From Escherichia coli (GTDB taxonomy: Bacteria; Pseudomonadota; Gammaproteobacteria; Enterobacterales; Enterobacteriaceae), in the NCBI RefSeq assembly GCF_003334335.1, contig NZ_QOWQ01000090.1: DNA of 2,270 bases, one strand, 5' to 3'. How positions within the stretch are numbered: the stretch's first letter is position 1; the number at the start of each line of letters is the position of its first letter. Made by a program: the position numbers and the translations under genes. The notes under the pieces were generated by a model, which ran no database searches, was not told the origin of the DNA, and saw only the letters and a program-made list of their open reading frames with translations. This document shows, piece after piece, positions 916 through 1,277 of this stretch.

Positions 916-1277
916 GCGCACTCCAGTTCTGTGATTTTTATCCCCAGCCGCCCGCCAGGAACAGGCAGACCACGCACAATATTGATTTCATCAAACTGCT
1001 CATCGTCCATTAACAACCCCGCGTGCGTCAGCGCATCCAGCGGTGCTTTCAGAATATTGTCCAGGTCACGACGACGCTTATCCGGTGGCTCTGCAATAAT
1101 TTTTATTGCCAGCCGTCCGGACAGGCTTAATTTCAGTCGCTGCTGGCGAACAATAAGCGACACTGCCCGGCGATAACGCTCCCCGGCTTTTGATACAAAA
1201 TATGTGCTGCCACGGCGTCGCCAGTAAGTGTTCACCGTCGGCGGGTAAGGCAAAACAAATTCTATGCGCTCGGTCAT
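912..1277 (-). CDS. rusA: Crossover junction endodeoxyribonuclease RusA (Holliday junction resolvase)
   Basis: The 121-aa translation (MTERIEFVLPYPP...PDKRRRDLDNILKAPLDALTHAGLLMDDEQ...GGRLGIKITELECA) matches my recollection of E. coli RusA in length and in the conserved acidic motifs, here D71, D73, D92 and K77. Start is ATG at 1277..1275 and stop is TGA at 914..912. A purine-rich GGAAAG lies about 7-12 nt upstream of the ATG, inside the end of the preceding gene. Confidence 0.92.
   Translation of the reverse strand: MTERIEFVLPYPPTVNTYWRRRGSTYFVSKAGERYRRAVSLIVRQQRLKLSLSGRLAIKIIAEPPDKRRRDLDNILKAPLDALTHAGLLMDDEQFDEINIVRGLPVPGGRLGIKITELECA

Follow-up and report, generated by a model that had tools for sequence, protein, structure and literature searches.

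An intact rusA gene with a complete set of predicted active-site residues in a lambdoid prophage of Escherichia coli

Organization of the locus

The window, i.e., the whole stretch of 2,270 nt of E. coli DNA that was analysed, carries three adjoining genes, which follow one another on the minus strand in the order DUF968/YdfU, rusA and Q (Table 1). The first of these continues past the end of the window; according to RefSeq, its product is 352 residues long, and its true start lies 66 nt past the window edge. This product was matched by Pfam DUF968 (E 4e-64) and also by HNHc_6, and its C-terminal HNH/His-Me finger motif reads CMTC...HH...CRKCH. Such DUF968 proteins are described as combining an Orf-like domain for ssDNA binding with a putative nuclease (PMC4118853). 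NCBIfam gave no family for either the DUF968 protein or Q, and its RusA match was sub-threshold. The identities of the DUF968 protein and Q were settled by Pfam and PHROGs instead.

Table 1. Features of the window and the evidence by which they were assigned
Feature	Position	Strand	Evidence
DUF968/YdfU-family gene, C-terminal HNH (His-Me finger)	1278..2270, 5' end beyond window	minus	Pfam, PHROG 96, RefSeq
rusA, 121-aa RusA-family Holliday junction resolvase	912..1277	minus	ORF list, homology, predicted fold
Basic DNA-binding loop K67-R68-R69-R70 (K-12 R66-R69)	1068..1079	minus	alignment, PMC1636454
Active-site segment D71, D73, N74, K77, D91, D92	1002..1067	minus	translation, gapless alignment, invariance, roles in PMC1636454
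Antitermination protein Q	232..915	minus	Pfam PF06323 (E 1e-88), PHROG 304, RefSeq
Promoter-like site, then GC hairpin and T-run	139..242	minus	consensus scan, sequence

The TAA stop codon of the DUF968 gene directly abuts the ATG of rusA (1277..1275), and the ATG of Q (915..913) overlaps the TGA of rusA (914..912) as ATGA. These abutting and overlapping codons suggest that the genes are co-transcribed and translationally coupled. A synteny with orf upstream of rap or rusA has been described (PMC4118853), and the gene order of the DUF968-rusA locus fits this pattern. The corresponding region of the K-12 Qin prophage (Qin 4490..6305) encodes a YdfU that is 78% identical and, 13 nt beyond it, a Q of another type (ydfT). 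Neither rusA nor a remnant of it was found between these two Qin genes. The presence of YdfU without rusA in Qin indicates that the DUF968-rusA-Q module is a mosaic in which the 3' end of DUF968 marks a joint.

Family membership and predicted fold of the rusA product

The 121-residue ORF is listed in RefSeq as WP_001625291.1, an intact "RusA family crossover junction endodeoxyribonuclease". It matched PHROG 34 ("RusA-like Holliday junction resolvase") at E 5e-56 and the Pfam RusA family PF05866 at E 6.5e-16, the latter over essentially the full length of the model (positions 1-122 of 124). When all PDB sequences were searched with phmmer, E. coli RusA was the sole match. Entry 1Q8R was found at E 2.7e-22, with residues 7-118 of the ORF aligned without gaps on residues 6-117 of the 1Q8R chain, and the D70N variant (2H8C/2H8E) was found at E 1.4e-21. 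BLASTP against the rusA product of K-12 MG1655 (b0550) gave 46 identities over 113 positions (41%) and no gaps, with an E value of 3e-29. In this alignment, residues 6-118 of the ORF fall on residues 5-117 of K-12 RusA, with an offset of +1 throughout. At the level of sequence, the match to RusA is far beyond chance.

The ORF scored 84 bits against NCBIfam NF007305, the K-12 RusA equivalog model, for which the cutoff is 200 bits. It therefore falls outside the K-12 equivalog, in a paralogous lineage. These comparisons place the window RusA within the RusA family, in a lineage distinct from K-12 and phage 82 RusA. The RusA proteins that have been characterized (those of K-12, phage 82, Aquifex and r1t) stand farther from it than do the close members of its own lineage. 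The gene itself is already known: RefSeq annotates it, its family is a textbook one, it occurs extremely often in E. coli, and nothing in it is novel.

Ten orthologues, with 86-95% nucleotide identity and 82-93% protein identity to the window copy, were fetched and aligned with this copy and with K-12 RusA. The AlphaFold2 model built from the resulting 12-sequence alignment (mean pLDDT 83.6, pTM 0.78) predicts the RusA alpha/beta fold. In a Foldseek search against the PDB, the model was superposed on K-12 RusA (1Q8R_A) with a TM score of 0.90 and an rmsd of 1.4 Å over 116 columns, and on 2H8C/2H8E with a TM score of 0.91. The RusA entries (rmsd range 1.3-1.4 Å) were the sole significant matches, and no non-RusA fold in the PDB reached a TM score of 0.45.

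Active-site and DNA-binding residues

The minus-strand translation of the active-site segment is DLDNILKAPLDALTHAGLLMDD, which extends exactly from D71 (codon 1067..1065) to D92 (codon 1004..1002). It is contained in the motif RRRDLDN...LMDDEQ, which as a whole occupies positions 996..1076. In a preliminary description of this DNA, it had been proposed that the motif preserves the Asp triad (D71, D73, D92) and the Lys (K77) of E. coli RusA. This numbering is correct for the 121-residue ORF, and the pairwise alignment with K-12 RusA bore out the proposal. Because the alignment has no gaps and its offset is a constant +1, D71, D73, K77 and D92 fall on D70, D72, K76 and D91 of K-12 RusA, so that the catalytic Asp residues occupy equivalent positions. 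Similarly, D91, R70 and N74 of the window RusA are equivalent to D90, R69 and N73.

The same four residues had been named there as essential for junction cleavage, and the literature agrees, as all four are called critical (PMC1636454, PMC10956419). D70, D72, K76 and an Asp at position 90 or 91 are critical for the endonuclease activity of RusA (PMC1636454). The number of this last Asp varies within that paper, being D90 in the introduction and D91 in the structural section, and a 2024 review lists D70, D72, K76 and D91 (PMC10956419). Since the equivalents of both D90 and D91 are present in the window RusA, this ambiguity is without consequence. The Asp residues of RusA bind Mg2+ and the Lys orients the nucleophile; R69 matters for the binding of DNA, and optimal resolution needs N73 (PMC1636454). 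In the complex of K-12 RusA with DNA, the basic loop reaches into the minor groove (PMC1636454). All of these elements were found in the window RusA, namely three catalytic Asp residues, the catalytic Lys, the conserved Asn and an Arg-rich loop before the first Asp. An Rfam scan of the window detected no known structured RNA overlapping the active-site segment; at a permissive threshold, it returned two chance-level matches (a snoRNA and a miRNA) that were far below the gathering scores.

Comparison with known RusA systems

K-12 RusA (PDB 1Q8R, 2H8C, 2H8E) is encoded in the cryptic prophage DLP12. It is 120 residues long, as compared to 121 residues in the window RusA, and its D70, D72, D90, D91, K76, N73 and R67-R69 are all kept. 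Each of the two genes lies upstream of a Q gene, within the nin region of its lambdoid prophage. The two proteins differ in that their identity is only 41%, below the NCBIfam equivalog cutoff, and in that R66, K84 and S13 of K-12 RusA correspond to K67, H85 and T14. K84, for which a DNA contact was suggested in a model, is H85 throughout the window lineage. The neighbours also differ, with DUF968-rusA-Q (PF06323 type) in the window and ybcN-ninE-ybcO-rusA-ylcG-quuD in DLP12. Moreover, DLP12 is a defective remnant, whereas the prophage that hosts the window looks largely complete.

The DUF968-RusA-Q modules of O157:H7 and other lambdoid prophages and phages (WP_000904141.1; URC08761.1 of vB_EcoM-606R7) belong to the same lineage as the window RusA, with protein identities of 82-93%. 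Their flanking genes and the stop/start overlap with Q are also the same as in the window, but A40S and Q104L are present in the window copy alone. Some relatives within the lineage have another N-terminus (MLIDL...), or another C-terminal tail where the type of the downstream antiterminator differs. Lambda Rap (NinG) occupies an equivalent position in ninR and is analogous in its role, being an endonuclease specific for branches or a Holliday junction resolvase, but it belongs to a structurally unrelated family with no homology to RusA (PMC4118853).

The identity of only 41% to K-12 RusA raises the question of whether the RusA fold and acidic residues could have been kept while the substrate preference shifted, so that the protein would be a nuclease for branches or flaps in general, or would work with the DUF968 HNH nuclease, instead of resolving Holliday junctions on its own. 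The tight linkage of rusA and DUF968, seen in each of the E. coli orthologues that were examined, points in the same direction, as do proteins in which a DUF968 domain is fused to RusA (PMC4118853). Nevertheless, such a shift is highly improbable. Far more distant RusA proteins, from Aquifex aeolicus and from the lactococcal phage r1t, have been reported as resolving Holliday junctions (reference 21 of PMC4118853); every residue implicated in catalysis and DNA binding is retained; and the occurrence of DUF968 without rusA in K-12 Qin means that the two genes are separable. Because DUF968 and rusA are always adjacent in these prophages, with abutting or overlapping codons, the DUF968 protein (Orf-like plus HNH) and RusA might also be read as a two-nuclease module for recombination or DNA processing, in which RusA would depend on or cooperate with its neighbour and would not be a stand-alone enzyme. 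We give this reading very little credence.

Conservation and selection

The preliminary description had further considered the prophage copy as not decayed. This is well supported by the full-length ORF, the RusA-like predicted fold, the invariant catalytic columns and the low ratio of non-synonymous to synonymous substitution. D71, D73, N74, K77, D91, D92 and R68-R70 are invariant in all 12 aligned sequences. The Nei-Gojobori dN/dS of the window copy was 0.07-0.22 against each of the ten orthologues, and across all 55 pairs the median was 0.15 and the maximum 0.27. Within residues 66-95, the pairs differed by 1-13 synonymous and 0-4 non-synonymous changes. The low dN/dS, together with this synonymous excess in the motif region, is a signature of purifying selection on rusA. 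Two substitutions are private to the window copy in comparison with all ten orthologues, A40S (codon 1158..1160) and Q104L (codon 966..968, both on the minus strand), and both fall outside the residues to which catalysis or DNA binding has been ascribed.

The complete window was found with 100% identity in four complete E. coli genomes (JE86-ST05, JE86-ST02, UCPROB-001 and UCPROB-002). DNA related to rusA is present in 3417 of the 5426 complete E. coli genomes (~63%), with up to nine copies per genome, and rusA of the same lineage is carried by sequenced phages, among them vB_EcoM-606R7 and the PPompW phages. The abundance of the lineage and the purifying selection are consistent with a need of lambdoid phages for a junction resolvase in lytic growth. 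Many E. coli strains thus hold a potential back-up for RuvC, should rusA become expressed. Apart from the correct annotation of this prophage's RusA-type resolvase, whose active site is complete, the locus is of slight significance.

Host prophage, expression and proposed function

In JE86-ST05, the surrounding 42 kb form a lambdoid prophage that adjoins yccA. It extends from int to the tail genes and contains the integrase, exonuclease, dicB, regulators, replication genes, hokD and DUF968-rusA-Q. Beyond Q, it contains a DNA methyltransferase, tRNA-Ile/Arg/Arg, TerB/DUF3927, a SASA esterase and lysis genes, and terminase, head and tail genes are also present. By its gene content, the prophage is apparently complete, or at least looks largely so. 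The succession of Q, DNA methyltransferase, tRNA-Ile/Arg/Arg, SASA esterase and holin (17554..19667 of the JE86-ST05 prophage) is the layout of Stx phages without stx, and the TerB-family and DUF3927 genes occupy the stx position. Pseudogenes were found in the nin and lysis regions (two DUF551 fragments, Ea22, DUF4752 and YdfR), which indicates that some decay is under way in the prophage, though not in rusA.

The ninR-type position of rusA between the replication genes and Q, together with the abutting and overlapping codons, makes delayed-early transcription most likely. In the lysogen, the early operon that includes rusA is presumably repressed. The rusA gene of K-12 is intact but silent, and its expression requires the insertion of IS2 or IS10 upstream (PMC10956419, PMC4118853). 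An intact gene is thus not necessarily expressed, and the earlier suggestion that the prophage copy is likely functional should be understood to mean that an active enzyme is probably encoded, not that it is active in this cell. With this meaning, we strongly infer that the window RusA is functional as an enzyme.

This dependence of K-12 rusA on upstream IS elements could have a counterpart here, if the ORF is intact but inert, i.e., if the prophage is defective or permanently repressed and rusA is an unexpressed, recently immobilized relic as in DLP12. The pseudogenes listed above and the restriction of the exact sequence to only four complete genomes are compatible with such a state. We consider it unlikely, though deserving of some weight, because the visible 42 kb retain integrase, exonuclease, regulators, replication genes, Q, lysis, terminase, head and tail genes, and because the lineage-wide purifying selection at the codon level implies that rusA was under selection until recently. 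An inert state would in any case concern expression and does not conflict with an intact active site.

Very probably, then, the segment 1002..1067 is the active site of an intact lambdoid-prophage rusA, whose product would resolve junctions and would be transcribed with the delayed-early genes in lytic growth. By homology to K-12 RusA, a homodimer of the 121-residue protein would bind four-way (Holliday) DNA junctions, with the basic KRRR loop (residues 67-70) in the minor groove. Mg2+ would be held by D71, D73 and D92, with K77 helping to orient the attacking nucleophile, and two strands would be nicked symmetrically, which would resolve the junction. The gene would be read from the early rightward operon of the phage, and the enzyme would act on branched intermediates of recombination or replication. 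The ORF, the equivalence of the residues, the fold, the purifying selection and the genomic context were shown by the analysis, whereas dimerization, Mg2+-dependent cleavage, the timing of expression and the biological role are proposed.

Region downstream of Q

A sigma-70-like promoter was recognized directly after the stop codon of Q (TTGCAA and TATATT, 17 nt apart; 242..214, minus strand). About 50 nt past this promoter, a strong GC hairpin, CCCGCCACTGGCGGG, is followed by a run of six T residues (159..139, minus strand). Together, these elements probably form the site of action of Q, made up of the late promoter, a short leader and a terminator. When the RNA of the putative late leader was folded, the z-score reached only -1.48, and the terminator hairpin alone is therefore claimed within this leader. 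Homology to sequenced phages begins at window position 134, which places a mosaic joint immediately past the terminator. Another terminator-like hairpin is located at 100..84, and an ATG at 15..13 (minus strand) opens a 198-nt hypothetical ORF (WP_000917749.1), which continues past the low-numbered edge of the window.
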